Source: Candidatus Hecatella orcuttiae
Lineage (GTDB): Archaea > Thermoproteota > Bathyarchaeia > Hecatellales > Hecatellaceae
NCBI GenBank assembly: GCA_002011035.2
Contig: MTLY02000003.1
Location: forward strand, 576,001-640,000
Length of the DNA: 64,000 bases
Direction: 5' to 3'
How positions within the stretch are numbered: position 1 is the stretch's first letter; the number at the start of each line of letters is the position of its first letter. The notes under the pieces are model-generated. The model was not told the DNA's origin, did no database searches, and saw only the letters and a program-made list of their open reading frames with translations. The position numbers were made by a program, and so were the translations under genes. Below, piece by piece: positions 5,155-37,436 of the stretch.

Positions 5155-5155
5155 T

Positions 5156-21058: not shown

Positions 21059-21065
21059 AGAAAGA

Positions 21066-21551
21066 TTGGGGGATTCTTTGATCAAATTAAATGTGAACGG
21101 GGAAATCCACGAGGTGAGGGTAAAGCCGTATTGGACGCTGCTCCGCGTTCTCAGAAACGAGCTGGGTCTAACTGGGGCAAAGCTGGGCTGTGGCAGAGGG
21201 GAATGTGGCGCTTGCACTGTCCTCATGGATGGGAAGCCGATTCTTTCCTGTTTGACACTGGCGGCTAGGGCTGAAGGTAAGAAAATAGTCACCATCGAAG
21301 GATTGGCGGAAGGACTCAAACTACATCCTTTACAGGAGGCTTTTATTAAAAACGGCGCAATCCAATGTGGTTTTTGCACATCTGGAATGATACTTTCCGC
21401 CAAAGCCTTGTTAGACCGGAATCTCAACCCAACCGAAGAAGAGGTAAGAGAAGCCCTTTCAGGTAACCTCTGCAGGTGTACCGGCTATGTTAAGCCGGTT
21501 AAAGCAGTACTGGAAGCCGCTGAAATAATGAGGAAAGGTGGAAGTAGGTGA
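21066..21551 (+). CDS. Xanthine dehydrogenase-family 2x[2Fe-2S] subunit (CoxS-like)
   Basis: GCGRGECGAC...C, QCGFC, NLCRCTGY. Confidence 0.95.
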   Translation: MGDSLIKLNVNGEIHEVRVKPYWTLLRVLRNELGLTGAKLGCGRGECGACTVLMDGKPILSCLTLAARAEGKKIVTIEGLAEGLKLHPLQEAFIKNGAIQCGFCTSGMILSAKALLDRNLNPTEEEVREALSGNLCRCTGYVKPVKAVLEAAEIMRKGGSR

Positions 21552-23824
21552 GCGAGAAAGAGCTGTCAGTAGTCGGAAAACCTCTCCCAAAGATAGATGC
21601 CTATGAGAAAGCTGTTGGAAAAGCGAGATATACAGTAGACCTAAACCTACCAGGAATGCTTCACGCTAAAATCCTGAGAAGTCCCTACGCTCATGCGAGG
21701 ATCTTAAAAATAGACACAAGTAAAGCTGAGAGACTGCCGGGCGTGAAAGCCGTTCTTTCTCACAAGGAGGCTCGCATAATTTTGGGGGATGAAGCTGTCT
21801 TAGACGATAAAGTACGGTATGTGGGTGATAAGGTAGCCGCTGTAGCGGCCACAAGCGAGGAGGCAGCGGAAGAGGCATTGGAGTTGATAGAGGTGAAATA
21901 TGAAGTTTTACCAGCGGTCTTCGACCCTGAGGAAGCTATGAAGCCGGAGGCGCCCATAATTCACCCAGATGTGCCTTTGGTAAAGGGCAAAGGCAACCTG
22001 AGGGATCCTGTATTTGACTATGGTGTAGGTGACGTGGAAAAAGGGTTCAAAGAGGCTGATTACGTATTTGAGAACAGGTACACGACTCAGCGGCAAGCTC
22101 ACTGTTGCCTTGAACCAGACGTGGGTATAGCCAGCTGGGATCCCAGCGGAAAGTTAACATACTGGACATCGGTGCAAGGCGCGTTCATTGTGCGCGGCAT
22201 CCTAGCCAGAGGTCTAAACATGCCTGAGAACATGATCAGAGTTATTGTGCCTCCTGTCGGTGGAGGTTTTGGAGCTAAATACGGCCGTTTGGAGGATGTT
22301 CTTTGCGCTTTGCTAGCTAAGAAGACTGGCAGACCCGTGAAGCTGGAGTGCAGCAGAGAAGAAGAATTCGTCACCACCCGAGTACGTTCCTACAGTGTCT
22401 TCTGGACTAAAACAGGCGTAAAAAAAGACGGCACTTTCACCGCGAGATATGTGAGAGCCATCATAGACATGGGAGCTTACGCCTACGGCATCTACATGGC
22501 GCAGAGAGCCGGAGCTTGGCTGATAACTCCCTACAGCTGTCCTAACTGCAGATATGAAGGCTACGCTGTCTACACCAACACGCCCAGCTCTGGGGCGTTT
22601 CGAGGATTTAGCAGTGTGCCTATTCACTTCGCTTTGGAATCGGAAATAAACAGAATCGCTGAAGAGCTGGGGATAGATCCTCTTGAATTTCGGATGAAAA
22701 ACCGTAGAAAAACAGGCGAGATAAACCCTTATAACAACGTCCCAATTGACGCAAAAGGTTTTGATGAATGTATGGTGAAGGGAGCTGAGCGCATAGGGTG
22801 GCGGAGAAAACGTGGGAGAAGGGAGAAGGTTGAAGGCGTAAAGAGGAGAGGCGTGGGGATGGCCATCTCGGTTCATTTCGCCCCTGCTCTCCACCCTGAT
22901 ATGCTAGTTCCCGGGGTCGCTGAGATAAACGTTAACGCTGATGGTACAATTCACTTGTTGATAGGAGTAACGGATATAGGTCAAGGAATAAACACAACCT
23001 GCGCTCAAATTGCAGCTGAAGAGCTGGGAGTCCGCTTAGAAGATGTAACTGTCTCAAACATAGACACAGATGTCAATCCTTGGGGCTGGCTGGTGGCTGC
23101 TAGCTCCACTCTGATGCAGACAGGAGGAGCGGTGAGGGCTGCTGCTGCGAAGGTCAAAAAACAATTGTTCGAGCATGCCGCTAAAATGTTGGAAGTACCC
23201 CCTGAAGAGCTTGAGGCCAAGGATCGGAGAATCTATGTCAAAAAGGAGTCTGAAAGGGGGATAGAAATCTCAGATGTGATCAGGCAGGCGGGTGCTCCCT
23301 CCATTTCTCCCTATTTCGTCGACGCCAAGGCAGCTTATACTTTTGGCGCAAAGGCCACCTATACCGTGCCTATGTACATTCCTCCTTGGGGCGCCCAGTT
23401 TGCCGAAATAGAGGTGGACACTGAAACCGGCCAAGTGAAGGTATTGAGGTTGGTGGCTGCTCATGACGTTGGCAAGGCAATAAACGTCAGCATCGTAGAA
23501 GGGCAGATCGAAGGCTCTCTGCAAAACAGCATAGGTTATGCCCTGACCGAAGAACTTATGCTGGATAAAACTACAGGACAGGTGTTAAATCCTGACTTCT
23601 TAGATTACAAGATCCTTCATACTACTGATATGCCTAAAATCGATGTAATCCTTGTTGAAACAAACAGTCCCGCCGGGGTCTTTGGAGCTAAGGGAGTCGG
23701 TGAGATGGGCCATATTCCCACAGCCGCTGCTATCGCCGACGCTGTATACGATGCAGTGGGCGTGCGGATCAAGGAGCTTCCGCTAACCCCTGAAAAAATC
23801 CTTAAGGCATTGAGAGAAAGATAG
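21548..23824 (+). CDS. Xanthine dehydrogenase-family molybdopterin subunit (CoxL-like, not aerobic CODH)
   Basis: RSPYAHA, GGGFGAK, FRGF, GQG, GQIEG, KGVGE; lacks the CODH loop VAYRCSFR. Confidence 0.93.
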   Translation: MSEKELSVVGKPLPKIDAYEKAVGKARYTVDLNLPGMLHAKILRSPYAHARILKIDTSKAERLPGVKAVLSHKEARIILGDEAVLDDKVRYVGDKVAAVAATSEEAAEEALELIEVKYEVLPAVFDPEEAMKPEAPIIHPDVPLVKGKGNLRDPVFDYGVGDVEKGFKEADYVFENRYTTQRQAHCCLEPDVGIASWDPSGKLTYWTSVQGAFIVRGILARGLNMPENMIRVIVPPVGGGFGAKYGRLEDVLCALLAKKTGRPVKLECSREEEFVTTRVRSYSVFWTKTGVKKDGTFTARYVRAIIDMGAYAYGIYMAQRAGAWLITPYSCPNCRYEGYAVYTNTPSSGAFRGFSSVPIHFALESEINRIAEELGIDPLEFRMKNRRKTGEINPYNNVPIDAKGFDECMVKGAERIGWRRKRGRREKVEGVKRRGVGMAISVHFAPALHPDMLVPGVAEINVNADGTIHLLIGVTDIGQGINTTCAQIAAEELGVRLEDVTVSNIDTDVNPWGWLVAASSTLMQTGGAVRAAAAKVKKQLFEHAAKMLEVPPEELEAKDRRIYVKKESERGIEISDVIRQAGAPSISPYFVDAKAAYTFGAKATYTVPMYIPPWGAQFAEIEVDTETGQVKVLRLVAAHDVGKAINVSIVEGQIEGSLQNSIGYALTEELMLDKTTGQVLNPDFLDYKILHTTDMPKIDVILVETNSPAGVFGAKGVGEMGHIPTAAAIADAVYDAVGVRIKELPLTPEKILKALRER

Positions 23825-23944
23825 ATCTGCCAACGTTTATCATCTATCATCTTTAGCAGCGAAGTTTCCCTCGCAGAGTTCAGCAAGAAGCTGATATACA
23901 GCGGTTATGATCGAATTTGCCGCGCCTTCCCTTTTCAAGAGCTG

Positions 23945-24754
23945 TTAACGAGTTCTTTTTTCGAGAAGCCCTATGAAGACGCTTAAACCGATGGTTTTGC
24001 TTATGATGAAAATCAGGATAGTGTAGATGAGAATCAAAAAGATCGAAGCAGCTGCGAAGGTTGGGTCAACTTGCTCTCTCATGAAGGTTAAAAGCACCAC
24101 TGGCAGAATTAACGCATCGCTACGGGAGAGAAACACTGAAGCGGTTACCTCGTCTAGAGAGATCACAAAGGCAAAGACTGAAGCTGCTATGATGCCGGGC
24201 TTTATCATGGGGAGAGTAATTCTTCTGAACGCCCGTAGACCGCTCGAACCTAGGACTTTTGCCGATTCCTCTAAGGTTATGTCAAACCCGCTTAGAGTGG
24301 CTGCGATTGCGCGGATAGAAAAGGGTATTGTCAAAATCACGTGAGCTATGGTTAGGTTGAAGAAGCTTATGTAGATTCCCAGGATTCCTCTGAGAAGAAA
24401 AAGTAACGCCGACCCTGTGACAACAGCGGGAACTATTAATGGCATAAAGAATAACATATTCAAAAAATCTTTCCCTCTGAAATTATAACGAACCATACCG
24501 TAGGAGGTTAAAAGCCCTGTTACCACGGATATCGAAACTACCACAGCAGCCAAAATAAGGCTGACTCTGAAGGCGTTGATGAAAACCTCTTCCTGGATAA
24601 ATTTATTGACCCATTTCAGGGAAAAGCCTGGAGGAGGAAATGTGGGCGTGGTCTCCGGGCTGAAAACGATTCCCACCGTCAAAGGCAGAGGAATGAGAAG
24701 GAAGACGACGCTGAATGCTAATACGATTTTAACTAAAATTTTGTGAAGTTCCAT
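23945..24754 (-). CDS. ABC transporter permease (PotC-like)
   Basis: Hydrophobic; EESAKVLG EAA motif, SLDE. Confidence 0.9.
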   Translation of the reverse strand: MELHKILVKIVLAFSVVFLLIPLPLTVGIVFSPETTPTFPPPGFSLKWVNKFIQEEVFINAFRVSLILAAVVVSISVVTGLLTSYGMVRYNFRGKDFLNMLFFMPLIVPAVVTGSALLFLLRGILGIYISFFNLTIAHVILTIPFSIRAIAATLSGFDITLEESAKVLGSSGLRAFRRITLPMIKPGIIAASVFAFVISLDEVTASVFLSRSDALILPVVLLTFMREQVDPTFAAASIFLILIYTILIFIISKTIGLSVFIGLLEKRTR

Positions 24755-24763
24755 CTTTTCTTC

Positions 24764-25669
24764 TCACCTGCCGCCTACGGTCAATCTCGCTGGCATTTTT
24801 TTGCTTGTGAAATAGTTAACTCCGTACCATATTGCCAGAGTATAGGTGAGAAGAACGAAAGCCATGGCAGCGCCCAGTGGATAATTAAGAGTGAACATGA
24901 ATCTCTCGTATATGAAATTGGCTATGAGTGTCACTACCCCGCCGCCTACTATCATGGGAGTGACAAAAGAAGCCACGTTCCACGCGAAAAGAGCTGAGAA
25001 CACTCCGATGACTCCTGGAAGACTGAGAGGCAGAGTGACCCTGATAAAAGTTCTCACAGGGTCTGATCCCAAGGTTTTTGCAGCGTCTTCTAGCGTGGGG
25101 TCGATGTTTTGAAGGGGTCCTATCAGGAAAAGAACAGCGAATACAGCACCCCATTGGCCTAAAGCTATAGTCACAGCGGCTTCATTGTACAGCAGTATGA
25201 CTCTCGACATTCCTAAAAGGCTGAAAAGGTTGTTGATGGTTCCATAATATCCGAGGAGGACTATCCAAGAATAAAGGCGAATGAGGAACGATATAAGAAA
25301 TGAAATGGTCACCGCTACGATGACGAAGCTTCTAGTTTTGGAAGGTTTTGCTCTGACGATCCAAAAGCTTAAGGGATACCCTAAACCTAGGGCGATGAGT
25401 GTCGCTAGGAGAGCTACTCTCAACGTAACTATCATGACCCTTTGGTAAGCGGGTTCAGTGAATATCAGTATATAATTTTCTAGAGTAAACGCTTTCTCTA
25501 TTTGTAAACCTACTAAATGCCTATAAAAACTGAGTTCTCCCATCATAGCTAAGGATACTATGAAAAAACCCATTATAATAAATACGGGGAAGAAAACCAT
25601 GAATTTTAGTTTTTGAAAACTGAATATCGCCTTCAACCTTCCAGTATTAGAGAATCTTCGCATTGCCAT
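24764..25669 (-). CDS. ABC transporter permease (PotB-like)
   Basis: TLENY, LGYP, RLYSW, EDAAKTLG, TPMIVGG; exact start uncertain. Confidence 0.9.
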   Translation of the reverse strand: MAMRRFSNTGRLKAIFSFQKLKFMVFFPVFIIMGFFIVSLAMMGELSFYRHLVGLQIEKAFTLENYILIFTEPAYQRVMIVTLRVALLATLIALGLGYPLSFWIVRAKPSKTRSFVIVAVTISFLISFLIRLYSWIVLLGYYGTINNLFSLLGMSRVILLYNEAAVTIALGQWGAVFAVLFLIGPLQNIDPTLEDAAKTLGSDPVRTFIRVTLPLSLPGVIGVFSALFAWNVASFVTPMIVGGGVVTLIANFIYERFMFTLNYPLGAAMAFVLLTYTLAIWYGVNYFTSKKMPARLTVGGR

Positions 25670-26703
25670 TCAACGACCACCGTTTCACCTGGAGGAAAGA
25701 ACTCTTCTTCAATGCTGACCGCTGAAATCGGAGTGTCCTTCACATCTATACAATAGGTTTTGAACATTCCCTTGAAAGATGCGCTCTGAACACTGCCTAT
25801 GAAACTGTTCTTTTCTTTGACTTCCCCTTTACACCTGATCTTAATTCTTTCCGGCCTTACAACCACTGTGACCTTATCGTTTTCTTTAAGCTTTGAACCT
25901 GAATTTAACATGGAATGTAGAATGAGACCTTTCTCCGTTCGGACGCACACGTAGGGCGCTTGTATTTTTGTCACTCTCCCTTCAAAAAGATTCGCCTCAC
26001 CGATGAAATCAGCTACAAAGCTGGATTTCGGCAACTTATAAATCTCATGCGGATTTCCAACCTGCACTATCTTGCCTTTTCTCATCACTGCGATGACGTC
26101 GGACATGGTAAGGGCTTCCCCTTGGTCGTGGGTGACATAAACAGCGGTTACGCCTATCTGGTTGATGATCCTTTTTATCTCCAACTGCATGGCTAAACGC
26201 AGCTTCAGATCGAGGTTGCTGAGGGGTTCATCAAGTAGTATTATTTTAGGTTCAACAACCAAAGCTCTTGCCAACGCTACCCGCTGCTGTTCTCCCCCGC
26301 TCAGTTGGTAGGGGTACCTCTGTTCATAGCCGGGAAGCTTTACTATTTCTAAAATTCGTGCAACTTTGTCTCTAATTTTGTCTTTGCTCAGCTTTCGTTC
26401 CTCTAATCCGTAAGCTATGTTCTTGAAGACGGTCATATGGGGGAAAAGCGCGTAATTCTGAAATACCATGCTGAGGTTTCTTTTGTAGGGAGGAAGGTTG
26501 TCGACCCGGCGGCCGTCCATGTAAATACTGCCACTATCCTGCTTGGTTAAGCCAGCTATTATCCTAAGCAACGTCGTCTTTCCACAGCCGCTAGGCCCCA
26601 AGAGGGTGAGAAACTGTTTTTCTTTCAAGCTGACGGAAACGTCGTCGAGCACTTTAACTCCATCATAATATTTGACGATACCTTGGACACGCATTGCCTC
26701 CAA
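25633..26703 (-). CDS. ABC transporter ATPase (PotA-like, TOBE domain)
   Basis: GPSGCGKTT, LSGGEQQR, LLDEP, VTHDQ, FVADFIG. Confidence 0.95.
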   Translation of the reverse strand: MEAMRVQGIVKYYDGVKVLDDVSVSLKEKQFLTLLGPSGCGKTTLLRIIAGLTKQDSGSIYMDGRRVDNLPPYKRNLSMVFQNYALFPHMTVFKNIAYGLEERKLSKDKIRDKVARILEIVKLPGYEQRYPYQLSGGEQQRVALARALVVEPKIILLDEPLSNLDLKLRLAMQLEIKRIINQIGVTAVYVTHDQGEALTMSDVIAVMRKGKIVQVGNPHEIYKLPKSSFVADFIGEANLFEGRVTKIQAPYVCVRTEKGLILHSMLNSGSKLKENDKVTVVVRPERIKIRCKGEVKEKNSFIGSVQSASFKGMFKTYCIDVKDTPISAVSIEEEFFPPGETVVVEWQCEDSLILEG

Positions 26704-26938
26704 TTTCTGCTCTCCTTTTTATAAATTCTTGAAAGCAAATTAAAAAGCTTACTGCTATTTGACGGTGTGAAATGATCAAATTTGACACAAATACATCTAC
26801 CTAAACGAATTACGATGAATTTTGTATGCTTTTTCTTAACGAAAATTCAAAAACCGGCTGCTCTTTTTCATTTAAAGCTTCTTTACGGAAAACCATTAAA
26901 AACTACAGAATGGAAAAAATGGGCAGGAATAAATATCA

Positions 26939-26952
26939 TAAAAAAAGGGGGA
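26939..26952 (-). terminator. Oligo-T terminator candidate after the binding-protein gene
   Basis: The minus strand reads CTCCCCCTTTTTTTA immediately after the stop codon. Confidence 0.4.
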
Positions 26953-26957
26953 GAGAT

Positions 26958-28100
26958 TTAACCTTTCACTCCTAGAAGTGGACGGATTTCTTCGTCAAAC
27001 CGTGCAGTCCACTCTTCCATTTTCTCCCGCGCCACCAGCGGATCGTATGCATACGCGTATTTTTCAATCTCTTCCTTGGTCAAGGCGTAGGGATACGCAG
27101 CGGCCTCTGCATTTATGTTTGTTGGGAACTGGCCTAGTCGTGCAGCTGATTCTTCGTTTATCTCTCGGTCCAAAGCTAGGTTCACGTATTTGAAGGCCCA
27201 TTCTTTTCTGGGACTGTTTGTCACGTGCAGAGTCCATTCTCCTAAGTGAACTGGATGCTTCTCGGAGGCGGCGGCGAATGCCACGGCAACCCCTCTCTCC
27301 AGTAATGGTAGGAGGCTGTCGTTTGTTGAACCTAGGTGCACGTTGATTTCTCCCCTTTCGATAGAACTGATGATGTCCCCTACTGTTGGGGTGATGAGCG
27401 TGATGTTCGGCGCTATCTTTTTCAGCAATTCCCATCCGGGCTCTGGATTATATTCGTCTCCACCCATAGCATAAGCCAGCCGCAGCAAGGTTACTCCGCC
27501 ATAATAGCCAATGGGAACTATTCCTATCCTGTATTGAGGGTCAGCAAGGTCTTCCATGGACACCGGCTCGTCAACTAGATCGGTACGATATAGTGTTCGT
27601 ACGTGAGACATGAAATTGGCTACACCGTAGATTTTACCATTGTATACCGTCATGTATTCGTCGGGGATTTCTTCCAAATTCGGCATTTCCTCCACCGGGA
27701 AGGGGGCTATGATGTTGTCTATAGCGGCTTCCAAACCTGCGACATGGGTAGCACCCCAGACATCGTTGAAATAGTTAGGTAGGTCAGCTCTGATCTTGGC
27801 CAGCCCCTCTGTGGAATAAGCCTCTACCTCATACCTTACAGGAATACCGAATTCTGCTTCGAACATTTCGTTAATATATTCAAACGCTGCCCTGGATTTG
27901 GGGTCTCCCCAAGCTAAGAGTGTTATAAAGTCCGGCTTCGGTACTGGCGTAGGCGTGGGTGTAGGCGTCGGTGTTGGAGCCGGGGCTGGGGGCCTTGTGG
28001 CCTGCCAGGCGGCGTAGCCGCCCACACCAGCCACCACCACAGCCACAACCGCAGCAACACCGTATTTTAGGGCGCTTCTACGAGATTCGGAAGATGTCAA
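26958..28100 (-). CDS. ABC substrate-binding protein (PotD/spermidine-opine-like) with Tat-like signal and Pro-Thr linker
   Basis: SRRSALK followed by a hydrophobic helix, then PAPAPTPTPTPTPTPVP, LYRTD, EDLADP, AFKYVN. Confidence 0.85.
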   Translation of the reverse strand: MTSSESRRSALKYGVAAVVAVVVAGVGGYAAWQATRPPAPAPTPTPTPTPTPVPKPDFITLLAWGDPKSRAAFEYINEMFEAEFGIPVRYEVEAYSTEGLAKIRADLPNYFNDVWGATHVAGLEAAIDNIIAPFPVEEMPNLEEIPDEYMTVYNGKIYGVANFMSHVRTLYRTDLVDEPVSMEDLADPQYRIGIVPIGYYGGVTLLRLAYAMGGDEYNPEPGWELLKKIAPNITLITPTVGDIISSIERGEINVHLGSTNDSLLPLLERGVAVAFAAASEKHPVHLGEWTLHVTNSPRKEWAFKYVNLALDREINEESAARLGQFPTNINAEAAAYPYALTKEEIEKYAYAYDPLVAREKMEEWTARFDEEIRPLLGVKG

Positions 28101-28252
28101 GAACTTTCACCGGTTTAGTCTATTACCAGATATCTTATATATAAAAGTTTCGAGAAAAAATAGATGGAAATATTAATCAGCATCCCCATTAGAAAATCTT
28201 ATATAGATAATGAAATGAAAATTATATCCCCTCATAATTTGGGGGATTTCCT
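28101..28252. promoter_or_regulatory. Divergent promoter region shared by the ABC operon and the methyltransferase operon
   Basis: Very AT-rich; two ATCTTATATA boxes; inverted repeat ATCCCC...GGGGAT just upstream of the corrinoid gene. Confidence 0.5.
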
Positions 28253-28900
28253 TTGTCCAAAGAAGAAGTTTTGGAAAAGCTACGCAGAAGTTTTCTCAGC
28301 TACGATGAGGAAGCCACTCGAAAGGCTGCGGCGGAGGCTCTCGCTGCGGGAGTAGACCCCTTGGAGGCTGTAAGCGTCCTTACAGAGACTATCAGAGAGC
28401 TAGGTGAGAAATTTTCTAAGATGGAAATCTTTCTCCCCGACTTGATGCTGGCGGCAGATGCCATGAGAGCTGGATTAACCGTGTTGAAGCCGGAGTTGAT
28501 GAAAAGAAAGGCGGAGACCAGAACTCTAGGTAAGATTCTAATAGGTGTGGTGAAGGGGGACATCCACGACATCGGTAAAACCATTCTGGTCACGATGCTA
28601 GAGGCCGAGGGTTTCGAAGTGATCGACTTGGGAAAAGATGTTCCCATAAGAAAATTTGTGGAAGAAGCTCAAACTCACAACCCTGACATCATTGCCGCTT
28701 CCGCTTTGATGACGACGACGAGGCCTGAGCAAAGAGGACTTATTGAATATCTTAAACATCTGGGCTTCAGGGACAAATATAAGGTTATGGTGGGAGGCGG
28801 TGCGGTGACAAGTCAGTATGCCGAAGAGATAGGCGCTGATGGATACGGTGAAAACGCCCCTGAAGCTGTGGAAGTTGCAAAAAAACTGATTTCTAAGTGA
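28253..28900 (+). CDS. Methyltransferase cognate corrinoid protein (MtmC/MttC family)
   Basis: FLPDLMLAA cap domain, GDIHDIGK, SALMTTT, VGGG, IGADGY. Confidence 0.95.
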   Translation: MSKEEVLEKLRRSFLSYDEEATRKAAAEALAAGVDPLEAVSVLTETIRELGEKFSKMEIFLPDLMLAADAMRAGLTVLKPELMKRKAETRTLGKILIGVVKGDIHDIGKTILVTMLEAEGFEVIDLGKDVPIRKFVEEAQTHNPDIIAASALMTTTRPEQRGLIEYLKHLGFRDKYKVMVGGGAVTSQYAEEIGADGYGENAPEAVEVAKKLISK

Positions 28901-28914
28901 AGGGGAGTTCAGTT

Positions 28915-29092
28915 TTGTCGAGGTCTAGGGTGTGGGAGCTTTGGCGGAGGGCTGAGACGGGTCCTCTCTGCCCGGAGCGGGAGTTTGACCTGAAGAGGTT
29001 TTATCCGGCTGTGAAGAGGCTGGTGAAGGAGTACGACATAACATACGACCCTGAAACCGTCATCCCCACCGACAACACCCTCATCGACGACG
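28915..29092 (+). repeat. 178-bp perfect direct repeat, copy 1 (5' end of mtmB paralogue 1)
   Basis: Base-by-base identical to 30332-30509. Confidence 0.95.
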
Positions 29093-30303
29093 TTTTCAAG
29101 GCGGGGATCGATCTACTGACCGAAGTGGGGGTGCTTTGCCCGGATACCGAGAAGATTATTCAGTTGGAGGAGCGGGAGGTCAAAGAATCCTTAGCTACCC
29201 TCTCCGGTGAAATGACGGTAGGGGAAGGAAAGGACGCCTGCCTTCTGAAACATAGAAAGATGGAAGACCATGAGCCTGCACGCGTCTTCGCAGGGCCTTC
29301 AGGAAATCCCATATCCGAGGAGATGGCTATCCCCATATACCAGTCTTGCGCTCAAGAACCAACCGTCGACCTGCTTATGTACGGTACACCTACCACAATT
29401 GCGGGTATGGTGTCAAAGGACGGTTCGCCCATGGAGATGTACGCGGAGGTCGCCAATGTACGCTGGCTGAGGGAGGCTGCCAGAAGAGCAGGAAGACCGG
29501 GTATGTTCATTATCGGTTCTGGAGCAGTAGGTGTGGCACCCGCAATACTGGCCAGCTTGGTAGAGAACGGCTATAGGAAAACCGACGGAATACAGCTCGC
29601 AGGACTACCGCAGTTAAAAATACCTTACTTTGAACTTTGCAAGGCTGAATTCTGCATCGAGTACGGGTGCAGAGGCTGGGTTACCTCCCCAGCTTACATA
29701 GGGGGGTTACCGGGCGGACCTGAAGCGGCTGCCGTCACAGAGGTAGCTGAGTGCATAGCTGCCAATCTTGTGTTTCGCACACCTTGGGTCTGTGTGGACA
29801 TTCACGACCTTCTGTATCCGCCCGGCACGTCGAGGAGGGATGTAATGAGCATGGTGAACTTGGTTACAGCTGCTCTTGCAAAGCATACCAAGTTGATTGT
29901 CTCCACCCTCTGCGACCGCGTTTATGCAGGATGTTGCACGGACATGGCTTTCTATGAATTTGCAGTGGCAGCCCTTGGAGCTGCTGTTGCTGGAGGAGAC
30001 CCTATGAGTGGATGTTGCAGAGAAGGCAGGTACACCGACTACGTAACCGGTATGGAGGGAAGATGCACAGGTGAGATTGCTAAATCGGTTACAGGAATGA
30101 GGAGGGTGGATGCAAACGACATAGCGAAGGCCATCTTAGCCAAGTATGAAGACCGCCTTCCACCGAAAGGGAAACCACCCATTGGGAAGGAGTTTCGAGA
30201 ATGTTACAATCCGAAAACGGTTACACCTAACAAAGAATATGTAGAACTTTATGGGAAAATTAAGAAAGAACTGGAAGATATGGGGATTAGCTACAAATTT
30301 TAG
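28915..30303 (+). CDS. mtmB: MtmB-family corrinoid methyltransferase, pyrrolysine-free (paralogue 1)
   Basis: IPTD, GPSGNPISE, AGRPGM, TGMEGR, GKEFRECY...TVTP. The Pyl-equivalent codon is ATC (29512). Probable TTG start at 28915 after GGGGAG. Confidence 0.88.
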   Translation: MSRSRVWELWRRAETGPLCPEREFDLKRFYPAVKRLVKEYDITYDPETVIPTDNTLIDDVFKAGIDLLTEVGVLCPDTEKIIQLEEREVKESLATLSGEMTVGEGKDACLLKHRKMEDHEPARVFAGPSGNPISEEMAIPIYQSCAQEPTVDLLMYGTPTTIAGMVSKDGSPMEMYAEVANVRWLREAARRAGRPGMFIIGSGAVGVAPAILASLVENGYRKTDGIQLAGLPQLKIPYFELCKAEFCIEYGCRGWVTSPAYIGGLPGGPEAAAVTEVAECIAANLVFRTPWVCVDIHDLLYPPGTSRRDVMSMVNLVTAALAKHTKLIVSTLCDRVYAGCCTDMAFYEFAVAALGAAVAGGDPMSGCCREGRYTDYVTGMEGRCTGEIAKSVTGMRRVDANDIAKAILAKYEDRLPPKGKPPIGKEFRECYNPKTVTPNKEYVELYGKIKKELEDMGISYKF

Positions 30304-30331
30304 GTTTGTGACGCTGAGGGTAGGTGTGGAG

Positions 30332-30509
30332 TTGTCGAGGTCTAGGGTGTGGGAGCTTTGGCGGAGGGCTGAGACGGGTCCTCTCTGCCCGGAGCGGGAG
30401 TTTGACCTGAAGAGGTTTTATCCGGCTGTGAAGAGGCTGGTGAAGGAGTACGACATAACATACGACCCTGAAACCGTCATCCCCACCGACAACACCCTCA
30501 TCGACGACG
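30332..30509 (+). repeat. 178-bp perfect direct repeat, copy 2 (5' end of mtmB paralogue 2)
   Basis: Base-by-base identical to 28915-29092. Confidence 0.95.
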
Positions 30510-31726
30510 CCTTCAAAGCCGCCATCGACCTACTACTGGAAGTAGGTGTCCTTTGCACGGACACAGAAAAAATAATCAAGCTTGAAGAAGGAGAGATCAA
30601 GGAAGCTCTTGCCACTTTCCCAAAGGAGATCACCGTCGGCGAAGGCAAGGATGCTGTTACTCTAACTCATAGGAAGATCGAAGACGATAAGCCTCCTAGG
30701 ATCATGGGAGGACCCAACGGTAGCCCTATATCCGAGGAGATGGCGATTCCCATCTATCAAAGCTACATCCAAGAACCTATGCTCGACATACTTTTTTATG
30801 GGACGCCGACGACGGTGGAGGGTATGGAGGTGAAAGCCGGCTCCCCCGTGGAGTTGTACGCTGAAATAGCCAATGTCTACTGGATGAAAGAAGCTGCGAG
30901 GAGAGCTGGAAGACCCGGCATATGCACTCTTGGAGCCGCGGGGGCGACTGCGGCTCCCCAGATACTGGCCAGCTTAGTGGAGGGTGGTTACAAAAAAACC
31001 GACGCTATGCAACTCAGTCCTCCTCCTCAATTGAAGGCTCCTTACTTCATGCTCTGTGAAGCAGCCCATTGCATTGAATATGGGTGCAGAGGCGTAGTCA
31101 TCCCCAGTTCCATCATAGGCGGCCTAGCTGGAGGGCCTGAGGGCGCCGCCATAACCAACATTGCTGAATGCATAGCCTTCGCCATACTTTTCAACACTCC
31201 TTGGGTGCATCCCTTCATGCCTGAGGCACTCCATGCCCCTGGATGCTCCGCTTATCCTCCGGAAATGGCTATGGAACTTCTGTCAATAGCCGCTTTAGTC
31301 AAACATGCGAATCTCATAATTACCAGTGGTGCGAACTCTAGGACCTTCTCAGGACTTTGCACTGATACGACCTTCTATGAGATTGCAGCACCCGCTATAG
31401 GCAAAACAGTGATAGGCGCCAACCTCCATGCAGGTTCAGCGAGGAAAGGCTACTACACCGATTACATGGCAGGCATATCAGCTCGGTGCACCGGAGAAGT
31501 AGGGTGGGCCGCTGTGGGGCTGAAACGGGAGGATGCCAACGAGATGGTTAAAACAATTATGGCAAAATACGAAGATATACTGCCACCCAAAGGAACGCCG
31601 CCCGTTGGAAAGAAATTTCAAGAGTGCTACGACGTCCAAACTGTCACACCGACAAAGGAACATGAAGACTTATATAAGAAAGTGAAAAAAGAGCTTGAAA
31701 ACATAGGGTTAGCCTTTAAATATTGA
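30332..31726 (+). CDS. mtmB: MtmB-family corrinoid methyltransferase, pyrrolysine-free (paralogue 2)
   Basis: GGPNGSPISE, AGRPG, GGLAGG, GKKFQECYDVQTVTPT. The Pyl-equivalent codon is CTT (30929). Probable TTG start at 30332. Confidence 0.88.
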   Translation: MSRSRVWELWRRAETGPLCPEREFDLKRFYPAVKRLVKEYDITYDPETVIPTDNTLIDDAFKAAIDLLLEVGVLCTDTEKIIKLEEGEIKEALATFPKEITVGEGKDAVTLTHRKIEDDKPPRIMGGPNGSPISEEMAIPIYQSYIQEPMLDILFYGTPTTVEGMEVKAGSPVELYAEIANVYWMKEAARRAGRPGICTLGAAGATAAPQILASLVEGGYKKTDAMQLSPPPQLKAPYFMLCEAAHCIEYGCRGVVIPSSIIGGLAGGPEGAAITNIAECIAFAILFNTPWVHPFMPEALHAPGCSAYPPEMAMELLSIAALVKHANLIITSGANSRTFSGLCTDTTFYEIAAPAIGKTVIGANLHAGSARKGYYTDYMAGISARCTGEVGWAAVGLKREDANEMVKTIMAKYEDILPPKGTPPVGKKFQECYDVQTVTPTKEHEDLYKKVKKELENIGLAFKY

Positions 31727-31931
31727 TTTCTTAATCCTTAAACGGGGTCTGTTTAAAAGATAGACTGAAAAGCTGAAGCTTGATTTGTGGAAATAGCTTT
31801 TTCATTCTCATGAGTCTTGCAGGAGACGCTTTAATCTGTCCCTAAATATGCTATATCGCCCCAAAAAAATGACGGCTACTCCCTTTCCAGCATTAGTTTC
31901 TTTGAGTAGCCTATAACTGCTTTGGTTGAAA

Positions 31932-32429
31932 TCAGCGTAATCTTGGTTTTTTAACGTTGTTCACCAGAAGTTTAATCAGTTCTTTTTCTTGGGATCTAGC
32001 TGAAAGGGCCTCTAGGTTTGTGAGTTCCAATGCTTCTTTGGGGCAAGCCTTAATGCAGGCAGGATCTCCACCGCAGAGGTCGCAGACAACTACAACTTTT
32101 CTATCAGGATGTAAGGTTAACGCTCCGATGTCGCAAGCGTCGATGCATAGGCCGCAGCCTGTGCACTTTTCATCGTCAACGATTATTATACCTGTCGAAG
32201 GATCTTTGGTTAAAGCTTCCAGGGGGCAGCTTTCGACGCAAGGCGGGTTTTCACATAGTTTACATGCTAAAGCCATATTGCCGACAGCTTCAGCTTCAAC
32301 AATACGAACTGTCTTTATCCGACTCAGCAGAGGGTTGAACTTTCCCTCCTTCACAGCTGAGCATATCAGTTCGCAGATACGGCAGCCTGTACATTTCTCA
32401 GGACTCGCTACTACATAGCTACGTTCCAT
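31932..32429 (-). CDS. 4x[4Fe-4S] ferredoxin-like subunit of the AOR
   Basis: CTGCRICELIC, CKLC..PC...CP, CTGCGLCIDAC, CDLC...C...CP. Confidence 0.9.
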   Translation of the reverse strand: MERSYVVASPEKCTGCRICELICSAVKEGKFNPLLSRIKTVRIVEAEAVGNMALACKLCENPPCVESCPLEALTKDPSTGIIIVDDEKCTGCGLCIDACDIGALTLHPDRKVVVVCDLCGGDPACIKACPKEALELTNLEALSARSQEKELIKLLVNNVKKPRLR

Positions 32430-34268
32430 CTAGTTCCCTCCATACGTCACCATATCAAGCCCTAATTTGGCGAGTTTTTCCTTCGGAGGTATACCCTCCG
32501 CACTCCAGCCGCGAGCTTTAAAGTAGGCTTCCAAAAGGAGGCTTCGCTCCTCCTCGGTAAATCTGATCCCCTTCAACGGACCGTTACCTATGGGTTCTTT
32601 GAAGATTCGAGCGGGATAGGTTTCATCTTTCAGGGTCCACCCTTCTCTGATGTTGTAACTTTTTTCAAGTGTGTAGATTCTTTCCCCGGCTAAGCTCAGT
32701 TCTTCAACACTCAGAAATAACCCGGTTGCCAACCGGTAGAGTTCAGCTATCTGCTCATAGCCTGTAATCACTTTTCTCGTAAACTTGCAGAGGATCAAGG
32801 AATCGATGACAGCCCAAAGGTTTTCCCTGTCAGCCACTAACCTGCCATAGGCTGGATCCGCCTTAGTCCCTTCGACCTTACCTGCCAAGTCAAAGTCGTA
32901 GGCGCTGGCGGTCATATGGTGGCCGCCGCGAGTTGAGGTCATAAATGCAAGAGCACAAACCTTCAGACCTCTTACCTCGTAGTCTGGTAACTCCAATCCC
33001 TTACTGTGCATGGCGAAATGCTGGGAGTCCTTCCCAAGCTTTTCAGAGGCTCTTTTCACACCTTCAGCCAAGAGGTCTCCTATGCCCTTGCGGTAGGCTA
33101 TCTTTCTGATAATTTCCAAAACGGCCTCCCCGTTTCCGAATTTGAGCTCAAGACCGCCTGTGTCTTCCCGGGTCAGCAAGCCTTTTTGGTAACATTCCAT
33201 AGCCCAGCCTATGGTAACTCCGACGCTTATGGTATCAACACCGTATCGGTCAGAAAACTCTGTAGCCTTGACCATCAACTGATAGTTACCTACTCCTGTG
33301 GAGAGGCCTAACCCGTAGAGGCTTTCCTGCTCGACGCTGGCTGTAGTCCCTTTATAAGGTCCGTTCTTCAGAACGGTTACGGGATCGCAGGCTATGGGGC
33401 AACCTTGACATGCTATCATCTTCGGGTGATAACGTTCTTTCGTGGTTTCTCCGGTAAACTCTTCATGAAGCACATGGTCGCTGGACTGCTGCCAGTTTCT
33501 CGTCGGCGAGATGCCCATTTCGCTAAGGGAAATCATTCCTCCGGGAGTGCCGTATAGCCTGTAGTATTTCGTGGCATCACCTTGGCAATCCTTGTAGAGT
33601 CTATTGCAATACTCAACCAATTCATCTATTTTCGCCACCTCTAAAGACTTGGAGCCGCGAACTGCCAGGGCTTTGAGTTTTTTAGACCCCATCACAGCAC
33701 CCATCCCTGTTCTGCCTGCTTGTCTACTCTTGTCGCTGGTTATACAGGCATATCTGACTAGGTTTTCCCCCGCGGGGCCTATTGCCGCAACGCTGATGTC
33801 CCTGTCGCCTATTGTCTCCTTTATCATGTCTTCCGTTTCCCATGAATCCCTCCCCCATAGGTCCTTCGCATCTTTAAACTGCACCGAGTCGTCGTCGATG
33901 AAGAGGTAGGTTGGCTGGGCGGCCTTTCCGGTTATCACCACAGCGTCATATCCAGCCCATTTGAGCGTCGGACCCCAAGAGCCTGAACATACGCTTTCCC
34001 CCATGAGAAAGGTGAGGGGAGACTTGGCGTGAACTATATACTTGCCTGCGGAAGGAATGCAGGTTCCAGCAAAGGGTCCTGTGGCAAAGATTAAAACATT
34101 GGCTGGGTCGAAGGGTTCCACCCTAGGCGGAGCGTTTTTGCACAGATAGTATATGCCGAAACCGTTTCCGCCTATGTATTTCCTGCAAAATTCTTCCTGC
34201 AGTGTTTCCGATTCGATTCTCTGACGGGTTAGGTCAACATGTAAGACCTTGTTTCTATAGCTGTACAC
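32430..34268 (-). CDS. Tungsten aldehyde:ferredoxin oxidoreductase (AOR family)
   Basis: YIGGNG, KSPLT, GRTGMGAVMGSKKLKA, CQGCPIAC, DRYGVDT, RGGHH, DSLILC. Confidence 0.92.
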   Translation of the reverse strand: MYSYRNKVLHVDLTRQRIESETLQEEFCRKYIGGNGFGIYYLCKNAPPRVEPFDPANVLIFATGPFAGTCIPSAGKYIVHAKSPLTFLMGESVCSGSWGPTLKWAGYDAVVITGKAAQPTYLFIDDDSVQFKDAKDLWGRDSWETEDMIKETIGDRDISVAAIGPAGENLVRYACITSDKSRQAGRTGMGAVMGSKKLKALAVRGSKSLEVAKIDELVEYCNRLYKDCQGDATKYYRLYGTPGGMISLSEMGISPTRNWQQSSDHVLHEEFTGETTKERYHPKMIACQGCPIACDPVTVLKNGPYKGTTASVEQESLYGLGLSTGVGNYQLMVKATEFSDRYGVDTISVGVTIGWAMECYQKGLLTREDTGGLELKFGNGEAVLEIIRKIAYRKGIGDLLAEGVKRASEKLGKDSQHFAMHSKGLELPDYEVRGLKVCALAFMTSTRGGHHMTASAYDFDLAGKVEGTKADPAYGRLVADRENLWAVIDSLILCKFTRKVITGYEQIAELYRLATGLFLSVEELSLAGERIYTLEKSYNIREGWTLKDETYPARIFKEPIGNGPLKGIRFTEEERSLLLEAYFKARGWSAEGIPPKEKLAKLGLDMVTYGGN

Positions 34269-34565
34269 AGCGACCCCTCCCTTATTAGAGATAATAACAA
34301 ATTATAGTAGTGTTTAGATTTTTGCCATTTAAGGCTTTAGGGTTTCTGCTAGTGTCTCTGATAGGTTCAGCATCAACTCACGCCTACCCCACCGCTACCA
34401 ACTTACCTTCACTTCAAGCTGAGAAGGCGATGGCTCGCTTAGTCTAGAATCCGCAGTCCCCTCCTTCCTGCGCACCCTAAACCGCCCTAGTTCTGAGGCT
34501 CAAACTGCCAAGCCAAGCCCCAAAAGCAGGACAATACCTCCCCAGCATAGAAAATAAAGAAATTT

Positions 34566-37436
34566 TTAGAATGAGGCTTCAGTGTCCCAAAACATCCTCG
34601 TTCGGAGGTAGGTTCTCTCCGCCTTCAGGATGGCTGCGTAGAATTTCTCCTCCGAGTCATGAGGCTTGCTTAGGATTCTCACCGCGGTAGCGGGGCCTAT
34701 TCCCCGGGCTGAGAGAGCTATCACCGCCTCTTTACCGTAGGTTTGAACTAGGCTGGCGTTTTTCCAAGCGGTATGCCAAAGTTTTTCTTCCTCGCCGCTG
34801 AGCTTTTTCCCCTGCAGTTTCTTCTTCACGGTCTTCAAGGTTTCGCTGTCCTTGGGGTTGAGCACCGCGATGAGGGTTGAGTTGCAGCGGGGGCATCGAA
34901 TGGTGGAAGGTAGGCTGGAGACCCGACGGTGGGCTTCCCAGTCTCCCTTGAAGACGCAGAGCAGTTTAACGGTCTTGGAGCCCAGCCGCTCTTTGAGCAT
35001 TGGTATGATCTCCCCCTTCTCCACCGCCGGCCTCAGGAGGTCATGGGGGGCTATCTTGTCGAGGAGGGGAAGCGCCAAGGGGGAAGGTTCAGGGCGGTGG
35101 AGCGCTGTTTCCACTTCCACTTCTCCACTCCTGATCTTCGCCAAGACTCTCTGAACAGTTTCCAAGTCGATGTCTTCGAGGAAGATTTCCCGAAAGGTCT
35201 CCTTGTAAACTGGGGTCCCCCGCAGTGCTTTCCGAAGGGCTTGCGCCTGTCTTTGGCGGAACTCCGCTTTCTTGGAGATAACTCCGAACCTCTTGGCGTT
35301 GTTCCAAAGCCTCCACTGGAAGAGGGATGTCTGGTCTAGGATGGTCTCCAAGATTTCAGAGGCCTCCTCTGGACGGAGGCTTCTCAACTCCTCCTCCACC
35401 AAAGAAGGGTCCAAAGCATGGGGGGTGATGAAAGCCATCCGGTAAGGGTCTGACTGCACAGCGACGTCGATTCCCAGTTTAGCCGTGAGGAGGCCTGCCA
35501 GAACCCTGCTTAAACCCCGGTTAGCCCTATCACCGAAGCACCCGTGGATGAGAGTGTAATTTTCAAAAGCTTCCACCACCACCCTCCGGTCGTGGGGGAG
35601 GGGGAATTCCTCCTCCACGTGCCTCTGGATAGCCGTAGCCACCTTGACCTTGGAGGCCTCGTCTAGAGGGTACCCGGAAAGCGGCTCAAGGGGATCTCCG
35701 CCGTCAAGAACCTTGGCACCTATCTCTCTTCGCAGCCTTCCCACCTCCAAAGCTACGGTGTAAGGGACAGGGATGACTTCTCCTTCCCAGGCAGGGATGG
35801 CTGCTGGGCTGGCTTCTACAGCTTCCACCTCCACCACCCGCCTCTCCTCGTCGACGTGGAGAACCTGCCACGCGGAGCCGTGGAGAATGAACTGGTTTCC
35901 GGGTTTTCCATGTTTGGCTACGAAGTCTTGGTCTAAGCTTCCTATTTTCCTCCTCGCCGCGTAGTCTACCACCGTAAACCGGGATACCTCGGGGATCATG
36001 GAAAGGTTTTCAAAATAATACTGGTGGGAGGAAGGCGGCTTCACCCTGAGTCTGTCCCCGTGCACGCTCAGCTTCCTCTCCTCCTTCAGCTGGTTTACAG
36101 TTTCCATGAAGGCTTCCGGAGGTAGCTGCCTGTAAGGGTAAGCCTTCCGGACGGTGGAATAGGCTTCTTCTAGGGTTAGGGAGCCCTGATCTAGGGCGAG
36201 ACCCACCAGCTGATGGGCTAGGACGTCTAGGGCCTCCCGGTGGAGCAGAGGCCTCTCCAACTCTTCAGCCAAAGCCTGTTTTAAGATGACGGCGGATTCG
36301 AGGATGTCGTCGGGCCAAGCGGCCAGAACACATCCCTTAGGCCTCCCGGCTACAGCGTGGCCGCTTCGCCCTATTCGTTGAACAAGCTTCACCACTTGCT
36401 TCGGAGACTGGTACTGGACCACCATGTCCACGGTTCCGATGTCTATCCCCAGCTCTAGGGAGGAGGTGCAGACAACCACCTTCAGCGCCCCCTGTTTCAT
36501 CCGACGCTCCGTCTCCACCCTGACTTCCCGAGATAGTGAACCATGGTGGATGCCCAAGGGAAGCTTGGGGGCTAAAGCCTTCAGCTTGGACCCCAAAGAC
36601 TCAGCATGCTCCCGGGTGTTGGTGAAGACCAAAAGGGAGCGATAAGCTTGGGCGAGTTGAAGGATCCTCCTAAGCCTGGCCACCGTGCCCGCGGAGATGA
36701 GCAGCTCAGCGGCAGCCGCCGAGTCCGCCTGGGTTAGGGACGGACTTTCCACCCAAGCCTCCACATCCCTGAAGGCCTCTGCCTTGAGGATTCGAACCTC
36801 TCGCCCCTCTCCTACGAGAAACCGGGCAACCGTTTCAGGCTCCCCGATGGTTGCGGAGAGGCCGATTCTTTGAAAGTCCCGCTGGGTTAGGCTTGAAAGA
36901 CGTTCGAGGGCGAGGGAAAGCTGGACGCCTCGCTTGTCGTCGGCCATTTCGTGGATTTCGTCTACCACAACCCATCTCACCGCGGAGAGATGCCGTCTCA
37001 TCTTCCGCCCGACTAGGATGGCTTGAAGGGTTTCCGGGGTGGTGATCAGCATGTGAGGAGGTTTCTCAGCCTGAAGCTTTCTAGCCGCCTCCGGGGTGTC
37101 TCCATGCCTCAGGCCGATTTTTATCCCCAAGACATCTCCCACTTCTGGGAGTCTTCGGAAAAGGTCCCGGTTGAGGGAGCGGAGTGGAGTCACGTAGAGG
37201 GCGGCGATGCCTCGAAGCTGCGTTTCCTGCCTTAGGCGGTGGAGGCTTTCGAAGATGGGCAGCACGGCCGCCTCGGTTTTACCCATCCCCGTGGGGGCGA
37301 TGAGGAGGACGTTCTCACCTTGGAGGATAGGCTGGAAAGCCAGCTGCTGGATGAGGGTAGGTTTCTCTATTCCCAGCTTTTCCAAGGCCTTGAGGAGAGG
37401 CTGGGAAAGCTGCTGAAAGAAATTCACCCTAGACAT
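34566..37436 (-). CDS. lhr: Lhr-like SF2 helicase (paralogue 1)
   Basis: APTGMGKT, TTPE, DEIH, LSAT, HHGSL, SSLELGIDIG, QRIGRSGH. Confidence 0.92.
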   Translation of the reverse strand: MSRVNFFQQLSQPLLKALEKLGIEKPTLIQQLAFQPILQGENVLLIAPTGMGKTEAAVLPIFESLHRLRQETQLRGIAALYVTPLRSLNRDLFRRLPEVGDVLGIKIGLRHGDTPEAARKLQAEKPPHMLITTPETLQAILVGRKMRRHLSAVRWVVVDEIHEMADDKRGVQLSLALERLSSLTQRDFQRIGLSATIGEPETVARFLVGEGREVRILKAEAFRDVEAWVESPSLTQADSAAAAELLISAGTVARLRRILQLAQAYRSLLVFTNTREHAESLGSKLKALAPKLPLGIHHGSLSREVRVETERRMKQGALKVVVCTSSLELGIDIGTVDMVVQYQSPKQVVKLVQRIGRSGHAVAGRPKGCVLAAWPDDILESAVILKQALAEELERPLLHREALDVLAHQLVGLALDQGSLTLEEAYSTVRKAYPYRQLPPEAFMETVNQLKEERKLSVHGDRLRVKPPSSHQYYFENLSMIPEVSRFTVVDYAARRKIGSLDQDFVAKHGKPGNQFILHGSAWQVLHVDEERRVVEVEAVEASPAAIPAWEGEVIPVPYTVALEVGRLRREIGAKVLDGGDPLEPLSGYPLDEASKVKVATAIQRHVEEEFPLPHDRRVVVEAFENYTLIHGCFGDRANRGLSRVLAGLLTAKLGIDVAVQSDPYRMAFITPHALDPSLVEEELRSLRPEEASEILETILDQTSLFQWRLWNNAKRFGVISKKAEFRQRQAQALRKALRGTPVYKETFREIFLEDIDLETVQRVLAKIRSGEVEVETALHRPEPSPLALPLLDKIAPHDLLRPAVEKGEIIPMLKERLGSKTVKLLCVFKGDWEAHRRVSSLPSTIRCPRCNSTLIAVLNPKDSETLKTVKKKLQGKKLSGEEEKLWHTAWKNASLVQTYGKEAVIALSARGIGPATAVRILSKPHDSEEKFYAAILKAERTYLRTRMFWDTEASF

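Follow-up and report, generated by a model that had tools for sequence, protein, structure and literature searches.

Within a 64,000-nucleotide stretch of the archaeon Candidatus Hecatella orcuttiae (contig MTLY02000003.1, positions 576,001 to 640,000 of the forward strand; hereafter the window), three consecutive open reading frames (ORFs) on the plus strand, 28253–28900 (215 aa), 28897–30303 (468 aa), and 30251–31726 (491 aa), encode a corrinoid protein followed by two members of the MtmB methyltransferase family, here termed A and B. The first ORF is a cognate corrinoid protein of the MtxC type. It matches the Pfam domains B12-binding (PF02310, E 1e-27) and B12-binding_2 (PF02607, E 2e-15), passes the cut-off of NCBIfam TIGR02370 “methyltransferase cognate corrinoid protein” (223.4 versus 215.3 bits), and contains the stretch GDIHDIGK, in which the DxHxxG motif reads DIHDIG. 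A and B are full-length members of Pfam MtmB (PF05369), scoring 323.5 and 328 bits against a cut-off of 25 and covering profile positions 3–450 of 450. Both align end to end with the monomethylamine methyltransferase MtmB1 of Methanosarcina barkeri (PDB 1L2Q/1NTH; phmmer E 1e-61 for A and 3e-67 for B), and the Atlas model of A has a predicted template modelling (pTM) score of 0.94 and a TM score of 0.95 to an MtmB cluster. The stop of the corrinoid gene overlaps the start of A by 4 nt. For B, whose ORF is open from ATG 30251, the start is most likely GTG 30326, because the similarity to A sets in at 30332 and the representative of the database cluster is 466 aa long; B would then span 30326–31726 and be separated from A by 22 nt. 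An Rfam scan of 23000–35000 returned a single match, the SpR10 sRNA, at 28.2 bits against a gathering threshold of 50, which we regard as chance. This DNA occurs in subsurface and marine samples, and a look-up of RNA runs listed none for 28253–31726.

Neither A nor B contains a stop codon or in-frame TAG, so that the UAG codon of pyrrolysine (Pyl)-dependent MtmB in the strict sense is absent from both. In the alignment with the M. barkeri chain, which reads agrpgmgvXgpe, the X (Pyl202) pairs with isoleucine in A (AGRPGMFI-I-GSG) and with leucine in B (AGRPGICT-L-GAA). A terminates with TAG, and this codon was considered as a Pyl read-through site and rejected, as TAG is a common stop genome-wide and read-through would add just 13 residues. 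A prediction made earlier from the DNA letters alone (hereafter the original prediction) had described a corrinoid gene (DIHDIGK) tightly linked to two full-length MtmB genes with no in-frame TAG. The linkage is borne out by Pfam, NCBIfam, and the 4-nt overlap, the absence of TAG by the Ile and Leu opposite Pyl202, and the motifs that it quoted agree with the phmmer alignment. The arrangement of a corrinoid protein with two Pyl-free MtmB proteins is far beyond chance. Thus, a cognate corrinoid protein with a DxHxxG motif adjoins the presumptive substrate:corrinoid methyltransferases (MT1), and we regard the locus as a genuine module for corrinoid-dependent methyl transfer whose MT1 enzymes are Pyl-free members of the MtmB superfamily.

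The host genome (1.75 Mb in three contigs, 97% complete) possesses a Pyl system of its own. A complete pylT(CUA)-pylS-pylB-pylC-pylD cluster is located at C1:349861–353949 (L092:4861–8949), with PylS scoring above its cut-off and tRNA-Pyl(CUA) directly upstream. One of the 12 MtmB-family genes carries an in-frame TAG (729 bits), while the other 11 are Pyl-free; further Pyl-type MT1 genes are one TAG-interrupted MttB and two TAG-interrupted MtbB, accompanied by three Pyl-free MttB homologues. Some genes of this organism thus have UAG decoded as Pyl, and the two window genes are genuine paralogues without Pyl, not Pyl genes that were mis-called. Bathyarchaeota with pyrrolysyl-tRNA synthetase and Pyl-type MtmB, MtbB, and MttB were reported in 2017 (PMC5424206). 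As a separate observation, TAG terminates 368 of 1383 ORFs of ≥150 aa (27%) in this Pyl-decoding genome; for Pyl-using methanogens, a share below 5% of stops is reported (PMC12180501).

A and B are 63% identical overall and are sisters in the family tree described below (support 1.0). Their 5′ ends are far closer than this value, as a 178-nt exact direct repeat (repeat family D1) occupies 28915–29092 in the 5′ part of A and 30332–30509 in B on the plus strand. Over the first 60 aligned codons, the two genes do not differ by a single nucleotide; beyond them, identity at third codon positions falls to 20–53%, the remainder being saturated. An assembly artefact was considered as the source of the repeat and ruled out. 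A contig of another sample spans the end of A, the repeat, and the body of B (30261–30608, 3 differing letters), and the depth in run X1 is 38.3 over the body of A compared to 37.5 and 36.1 in its flanks; a 178-nt unitig in public contigs fits both repeat places. The repeat is best explained by a recent gene conversion of the 5′ end, which would have been confined to the N-terminal 60 codons. A and B differ from each other at many positions that are invariant in the Pyl-containing clade, while every residue invariant across the family is kept in both; neither copy therefore looks like a dead subunit.

A family phylogeny, proposed as a check of the original prediction, places the pair in a clade of its own. 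The input comprised the MtmB-family genes of 61 genomes from the family of a Methanosarcinaceae metagenome-assembled genome (MAG), 53 of which had a match, the 12 paralogues of the host genome, full-length protein-search matches (those outside 430–500 aa were dropped), and ORFs from 70 loci of named genomes searched with an 11-sequence alignment (ORFs covering fewer than 380 positions of the hidden Markov model were dropped). In the FastTree phylogeny of 321 sequences and 455 columns, A and B fall within a clade of 26 sequences (support 0.999) that contains neither a Methanosarcinaceae nor a Pyl sequence. All of the 31 Pyl sequences group together to the exclusion of A and B, with a set of 21 Pyl-free sequences as near neighbour, to which Methanosarcinaceae genomes contribute 20. 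An IQ-TREE analysis of 86 rows recovers the window clade, the Methanosarcinaceae Pyl-free clade, and the Pyl clade with support values of 99, 99, and 100, respectively, in the Shimodaira–Hasegawa-like approximate likelihood ratio test (SH-aLRT). A is 29–47% identical to members of its own clade, 28–33% to the Pyl set, and 25–33% to the Methanosarcinaceae Pyl-free set. The window clade has no characterized member.

The Methanosarcinaceae Pyl-free clade presumably contains MtqB, the enzyme that now provides a precedent for Pyl-free MtmB proteins. Kashyap et al. (Front Microbiol 2026; PMC13044021) describe MtqB of Methanococcoides methylutens Q3c as a Pyl-free MtmB homologue that methylates cob(I)alamin at 37 nmol/min/mg with tetramethylammonium, 42 with choline, and weakly, at 11, with monomethylamine, and the authors claim the first function shown for any Pyl-free MtmB. 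The statement in the original prediction that no substrate is established for a Pyl-free MtmB has thus been outdated since March 2026, and the idea of such an enzyme is no longer unprecedented; the activity of MtqB demonstrates that the superfamily can act on substrates without a need for Pyl. We equate the clade with MtqB from the description in that paper, because its signature fits the conserved Met, Cys, and aromatic residues reported there and because it branches near the Pyl-containing MtmBs; we refer to it as MtqB-like.

MtqB and its corrinoid partner MtqC resemble the window unit in pairing a Pyl-free MT1 of the MtmB superfamily with an adjacent corrinoid protein, but A and B lie in a different clade and lack the MtqB-like signature. 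A topology that unites A and B with the MtqB-like proteins is rejected by an approximately unbiased (AU) test (delta lnL 71.7, p 0.0079), the tested group having been named after the first tree had been seen. At the column of Pyl202 (1L2Q numbering), the MtqB-like proteins have Met in 12 of 21 sequences, whereas A has Ile and B has Leu. The columns of H228-E229 read Q-E in the MtqB-like set, I-Q in A, and M-Q in B; E259 and the following two columns read G-Q-C (Cys in 12 of 21), T-S-P, and I-P-S, respectively; and four columns corresponding to residues 335–338 of the Pyl-MtmB of the host read R-Y-Y-W in six aligned MtqB-like representatives, T-L-C-D in A, and S-G-A-N in B. Thus, the conserved Met, Cys, and aromatic residues are missing from A and B, when the “positions 4 and 5” of the paper are mapped to these columns as we propose. 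The two systems also differ in their methyl sink, as MtqB feeds coenzyme M in a methanogen, while the sink in the window host is presumably tetrahydromethanopterin together with carbon monoxide dehydrogenase/acetyl-CoA synthase (CODH/ACS).

The window unit shares with MtmB1/MtmC of M. barkeri the superfamily, the protein length, the AGRPG sequence before the Pyl position, and the adjoining cognate corrinoid gene. In contrast, it has Ile or Leu in place of UAG-encoded Pyl, is ~30–34% identical, comprises two tandem copies, and resides in a host without methyl-coenzyme M reductase (Mcr). Near the Pyl column, A and B have substitutions at most of the residues that the Pyl clade keeps invariant, including all three Glu residues aligned with E205, E229, and E259 of 1L2Q. 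These three residues are said, in the 2002 structure paper of Hao et al., to have a catalytic role in MtmB. A further analogy is offered by the Pyl-free systems of the MttB superfamily, such as the glycine betaine enzyme MtgB, in which a Pyl-free paralogue likewise works with a corrinoid protein on methylated amines; they belong to an unrelated family, though (PF06253 versus PF05369), and appear to have the TIM-barrel fold alone in common with the window enzymes (Atlas TM 0.66).

Close relatives of the pair are rare. An exhaustive search of 1.84 billion cluster representatives yielded 991 relatives at E ≤ 0.001, of which 203 remain at a threshold of E ≤ 1e-30, and the nearest cluster apart from that of B is 44% identical. 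In a set of 60 related genomes, 13 from the same family and the others from the same class, no orthologue was found; six had any match at E ≤ 1e-60, with a best identity of 38%, and none of the 13 same-family genomes had a match at this threshold. On this basis, neither the pair nor the 12-fold family expansion is found in the related genomes searched. A close orthologue with a characterized substrate, which the original prediction had named as a possible refutation, was not encountered among these 60 genomes, and A and B are not orthologues of MtqB.

Upstream of the corrinoid operon, and transcribed divergently from it across a 152-nt gap, lies an ATP-binding cassette (ABC) importer encoded on the minus strand. 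It consists of a PotC-like permease (23945–24754; BPD_transp_1 E 2e-11; 136.8 bits to PotC, below the cut-off of 326), a PotB-like permease (24764–25669; BPD_transp_1 E 2e-6; 115 bits to PotB, below cut-off), an ATPase of the PotA subfamily (25633–26703; ABC_tran and TOBE_2), and a substrate-binding protein with an N-terminal membrane anchor and a Pro/Thr linker (26958–28100; SBP_bac_8 33.8 bits, cut-off 27). The ATPase scores as a PotABCD-type ATPase (TIGR01187, 370.7 bits, cut-off 355.6), while the binding protein matches the generic SBP_bac_8 family and no NCBIfam model and thus does not qualify as a PotD/PotF equivalent. A word-indexed search for relatives of the binding protein returned nothing beyond the protein itself and two matches on the anchor and linker. 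Its best PDB match is 4EDP (E 1.5e-7, weak), and its look-alikes in the Atlas by features and structure are SBP_bac_8/SBP_bac_6 clusters named as spermidine/putrescine or Fe3+ types. Taken together, this points to a small cationic ligand, as far as family resemblance can resolve it. A second SBP_bac_8 protein of the genome (C3:400396–401625; L096:4396–5625) has a near-identical anchor and Pro/Thr linker, while the mature domains hardly align.

The AT-rich intergenic region between importer and operon (28101–28252), which presumably holds promoters or an operator, contains two direct copies of ATCTTATATA (28132–28141 and 28196–28205). These are the only copies in the window, where 0.02 are expected. 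Genome-wide there are four; the one at C2:82457 is found 17 nt ahead of a further corrinoid-protein gene, which is itself followed by a URO-D gene. The shared motif weakly suggests a common control of this and another corrinoid operon.

On the other side of the unit, convergent to it on the minus strand, are a 4Fe-4S ferredoxin-like protein (31932–32429; Fer4 families) and an aldehyde:ferredoxin oxidoreductase (AFOR; 32430–34268; AFOR_N/AFOR_C), both of which we assign to the system tentatively. Convergent to the importer at 20189–23824 are three subunits (FAD, 2Fe-2S, and molybdenum cofactor) of a molybdoenzyme of the xanthine dehydrogenase family, below all equivalog cut-offs; MobA-like, XdhC-like, and MoeA-like cofactor genes occupy the window end (59908–63966).

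The genome harbours 11 Pyl-free MtmB genes in nine loci, and six of the nine lie within 5.1 kb of one of its 25 ABC ATPase genes, compared to 13.4% of ORFs of ≥150 aa (binomial p ~3e-4, calculated by hand). The associated binding proteins are of the SBP_bac_8 type at the window locus and C3:404797, of the Bmp/PnrA type at C1:10073, C1:186261, and C1:512798, and of the NMT1 type at C1:181095. C3:404797 repeats the window layout with a divergent PotA-type importer whose ATPase is 45% identical to that of the window; it also carries a class-III aminotransferase, a Pyl-MtbB with its corrinoid protein, a ferredoxin, and an AFOR. AFOR genes, of which the genome has six, occur within 5 kb of three of the nine loci versus 4.2% of genes. 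Of the loci beside Bmp/PnrA-type importers, those at C1:2001–20000 (L089) and C1:505001–535545 (L093, L094) further contain several Amidohydro_1 and dihydropyrimidine-dehydrogenase-like genes, two OTCase-like genes, and one carbamate-kinase-like gene. From its families, this gene set looks like N-heterocycle catabolism, which makes N-methylated nucleobases or nucleosides candidate methyl donors.

The neighbourhood survey that had been proposed with the original prediction covered 69 loci of named genomes with a full-length Pyl-free MtmB ORF (one of the 70 loci had none). In 51 of the 69 (65 testable), the gene immediately upstream encodes a corrinoid protein, and a second tandem MtmB is present in 13, in 12 of them as corrinoid-MtmB-MtmB. 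A URO-D gene occurs within 5 kb in six loci. AFOR was observed within 5 kb in 14 of the 69, among them loci from Bathyarchaeia, Methanosuratincola, Hadarchaeum, Thermoleophilia, Spirochaetales, and Anaerolineales. Among the few relatives from the window clade with genomic context, L152 and L001 have a corrinoid protein directly upstream, with URO-D genes at L152 and a RACo gene at L001; the same holds for the corrinoid protein at L032, L157, and L159, which are unplaced in the trees.

The remaining components of a three-component methyl-transfer pathway are encoded outside the window, namely six URO-D/MtaA-like candidates for the second methyltransferase (MT2), two MtrH homologues, and one homologue of the activase RACo/RamA; as none of these lies in the window, their pairing with the window unit is presumptive. 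The genome holds 14 corrinoid proteins. Neither McrA nor MtaB was detected in the 97% complete genome. The window itself also encodes MCM, GINS, an A-type ATP synthase, Hel308, and archaeal CdhC/D/E; its AtpA shares 74–79% identity with proteins named as Bathyarchaeia or Bathyarchaeota, in line with a host from the Bathyarchaeia. The archaeal CODH/ACS genes (CdhC and two of the CdhD family, one with an Fe-S domain) are situated at 2493–6553, ~22 kb upstream of the methyltransferase unit.

We propose that the three-gene operon is a Pyl-independent, corrinoid-dependent methyl-transfer system for an imported, N-methylated cationic substrate, a reading to which we assign a probability of roughly 55%. 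The substrate, most likely a small N-methylated cation, for example a polyamine- or aminoalkyl-type amine (secondary, tertiary, or quaternary), would probably enter via the divergent PotA-type importer. A and B would act as MT1 and transfer its methyl group, without a need for Pyl, to Co(I) of the co-transcribed corrinoid protein. From there, a separately encoded MT2, one of the URO-D/MtaA-like proteins or MtrH homologues, would pass the methyl group to a C1 carrier, from which it would be used for acetyl-CoA synthesis or oxidized via the archaeal CODH/ACS in a host without Mcr. Oxidized corrinoid would be re-activated by the single RamA/RACo homologue, and the neighbouring AFOR may be coupled to the same pathway. 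A and B arose by a lineage-specific duplication. As they differ at many positions invariant in the Pyl clade, they probably act on two related substrates or catalyse consecutive demethylations, unless they form a hetero-oligomer.

Several observations weigh against this proposal, some of them against its link between enzyme and transporter. The original prediction had stated that the substrate is the compound imported by the divergent ABC transporter. This link is plausible because six of the nine Pyl-free loci of the genome lie near an ABC ATPase, but the enrichment is overstated, since two of the six are neighbours that share one ATPase. Moreover, an ABC ATPase occurs within 5 kb of just 16 of the 69 named-genome loci, and no ABC importer was seen beside the few clade relatives with context (L001, L002, and L152) or at L032; the transporter link is thus suggested by this genome alone. 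The binding protein itself provides a clue to the ligand at the level of a broad class, and the pocket positions of A and B are candidates taken from the alignment. Finally, a Pyl-free MtmB pair may use monomethylamine in Methanosuratincola, as discussed below.

The alternative that fares best concerns the architecture and is compatible with any substrate. Possibly, though with less than even odds, A and B are subunits of one hetero-oligomeric MT1. MtmB of M. barkeri is reported to be a D3 homohexamer (PMC9842639), and the 178 nt at the 5′ ends of A and B have been kept identical. Tandem copies elsewhere are 39–75% identical to each other, and the pairing is maintained in four MAGs of Bathyarchaeia and at six loci of Methanosuratincola or Methanomethylicales; this retention over long evolutionary distances argues that the two copies are non-redundant. 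However, single-copy units are commoner (56 of the 69 loci are without a tandem copy), and the family-invariant residues preserved in both A and B give neither of them the appearance of a subunit that has lost its catalytic function.

It is unlikely that the methyl donor is not an imported amine at all but an O- or S-methyl compound or a halomethane, with the ABC importer adjacent by coincidence. A case for this can be built from “Ca. Formimonas warabiya”, for which the most induced protein on dichloromethane is reported to be a Pyl-free member of the MtmB superfamily (PMC9768040), and from the lack of a conserved transporter neighbourhood among clade relatives. Further, the 26 sequences of the window clade have 11 different residues between them at the Pyl column, which suggests diverse chemistry and makes a single substrate shared by the whole clade unlikely. 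In contrast, the enrichment of ABC genes beside Pyl-free MtmB loci in the genome itself and the divergent 152-nt control region with its repeated motifs favour a functional connection to transport. In addition, the characterized family members, MtqB (PMC13044021) and the Pyl-containing MtmBs, all act on N-methyl groups.

That A, B, or both are Pyl-independent monomethylamine:corrinoid methyltransferases appears improbable. The original prediction had excluded monomethylamine outright, and this exclusion is not secured, given the low monomethylamine activity reported for Pyl-free MtqB and the physiology of Methanosuratincola. Exactly two MtmB-family genes, which have no Pyl codon and follow a corrinoid protein in tandem, are present in each of the complete genomes of Methanosuratincola petrocarbonis LWZ-6 and Ca. 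M. verstraetei LCB70, and searches of both genomes gave no PylS match over the cut-off and no match to the MttB or MtbB families. In the presence of H2, LWZ-6 is reported to reduce methanol and monomethylamine and not di- or trimethylamine (PMC12244365). As the Pyl-free pair of LWZ-6 is the sole representative of the three known methylamine MT1 families, this constitutes circumstantial evidence for Pyl-independent monomethylamine use. An earlier comparative paper gives Pyl as seen only in methyltransferases of Methanosarcinales and Methanomassiliicoccales (PMC6421429).

The LWZ-6 locus (CP130488.1; L045:3928–13995) is also a close parallel in layout, with an AFOR, a corrinoid protein, two Pyl-free MtmB paralogues, and a convergent ABC importer within ~9 kb; its counterpart in LCB70 is L020. 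Nevertheless, the two units differ in substance. The Methanosuratincola copies belong to two other clades, are 33–36% identical to A, and, in LWZ-6, 39–41% identical to each other; the LWZ-6 importer is of the Bmp/PnrA type, in contrast to the PotA/SBP_bac_8 type of the window; and LWZ-6 is a methyl-reducing methanogen without Pyl. Moreover, a TAG-containing MtmB that comes with a corrinoid protein of its own is already present in the window genome beside pylTSBCD, and monomethylamine would not be expected to need a polyamine-type importer that depends on a binding protein. The low weight that we give to monomethylamine follows from the clade positions of the Methanosuratincola copies and from this Pyl-MtmB.

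Finally, we consider it very improbable that A and B are MtqB-type methyltransferases for quaternary amines such as tetramethylammonium or choline, for although MtqB is the sole Pyl-free MtmB homologue known to have a demonstrated function (PMC13044021), and a quaternary amine needs no Pyl and as a cation would suit a PotA-type importer, the distinct, well-supported clades, the AU test, the low identity, and the absence of the Met, Cys, Q-E, G-Q-C, and R-Y-Y-W residues separate A and B from the MtqB-like proteins.

Returning to the proposed import and demethylation of an N-methylated cation, the other loci of the genome allow a wider and more speculative reading, in which we have limited confidence and which is meant as a whole. 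The 11 Pyl-free MtmB paralogues may constitute a large toolkit of substrate-specific N-demethylases, each coupled to a distinct ABC importer, which would be of the polyamine-like SBP_bac_8, the nucleoside/nucleobase-like Bmp/PnrA, or the NMT1 type. At several loci, these would be accompanied by catabolic genes (amidohydrolases, dihydropyrimidine-dehydrogenase-like enzymes, a class-III aminotransferase, and tungsten-type AFOR), so that the cell might obtain methyl groups for acetyl-CoA synthesis from a wide range of methylated metabolites, without recourse to methanogenesis. Within this toolkit, the recurrent module of corrinoid protein, two MtmB copies, AFOR, and importer, which also occurs in cultured Methanosuratincola, could represent a two-subunit or two-step MT1 for N-methyl compounds, possibly even monomethylamine, that operates without Pyl.

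Methylated amines are major pools of carbon and nitrogen in anoxic sediments, and Bathyarchaeia are among the most abundant archaea there, with substrates that are largely guessed. MtqB aside, the function of Pyl-free MtmB proteins is uncharacterized, and the pair described here represents a different clade with a different predicted pocket. The 11-copy expansion with transporters nearby offers trios of enzyme, carrier, and binding protein that can be cloned for finding new methyl donors. Cultured Methanosuratincola with its parallel unit is a tractable system for asking whether monomethylamine activation can occur without pyrrolysine, and such an activation, if true, would bear on why pyrrolysine evolved.

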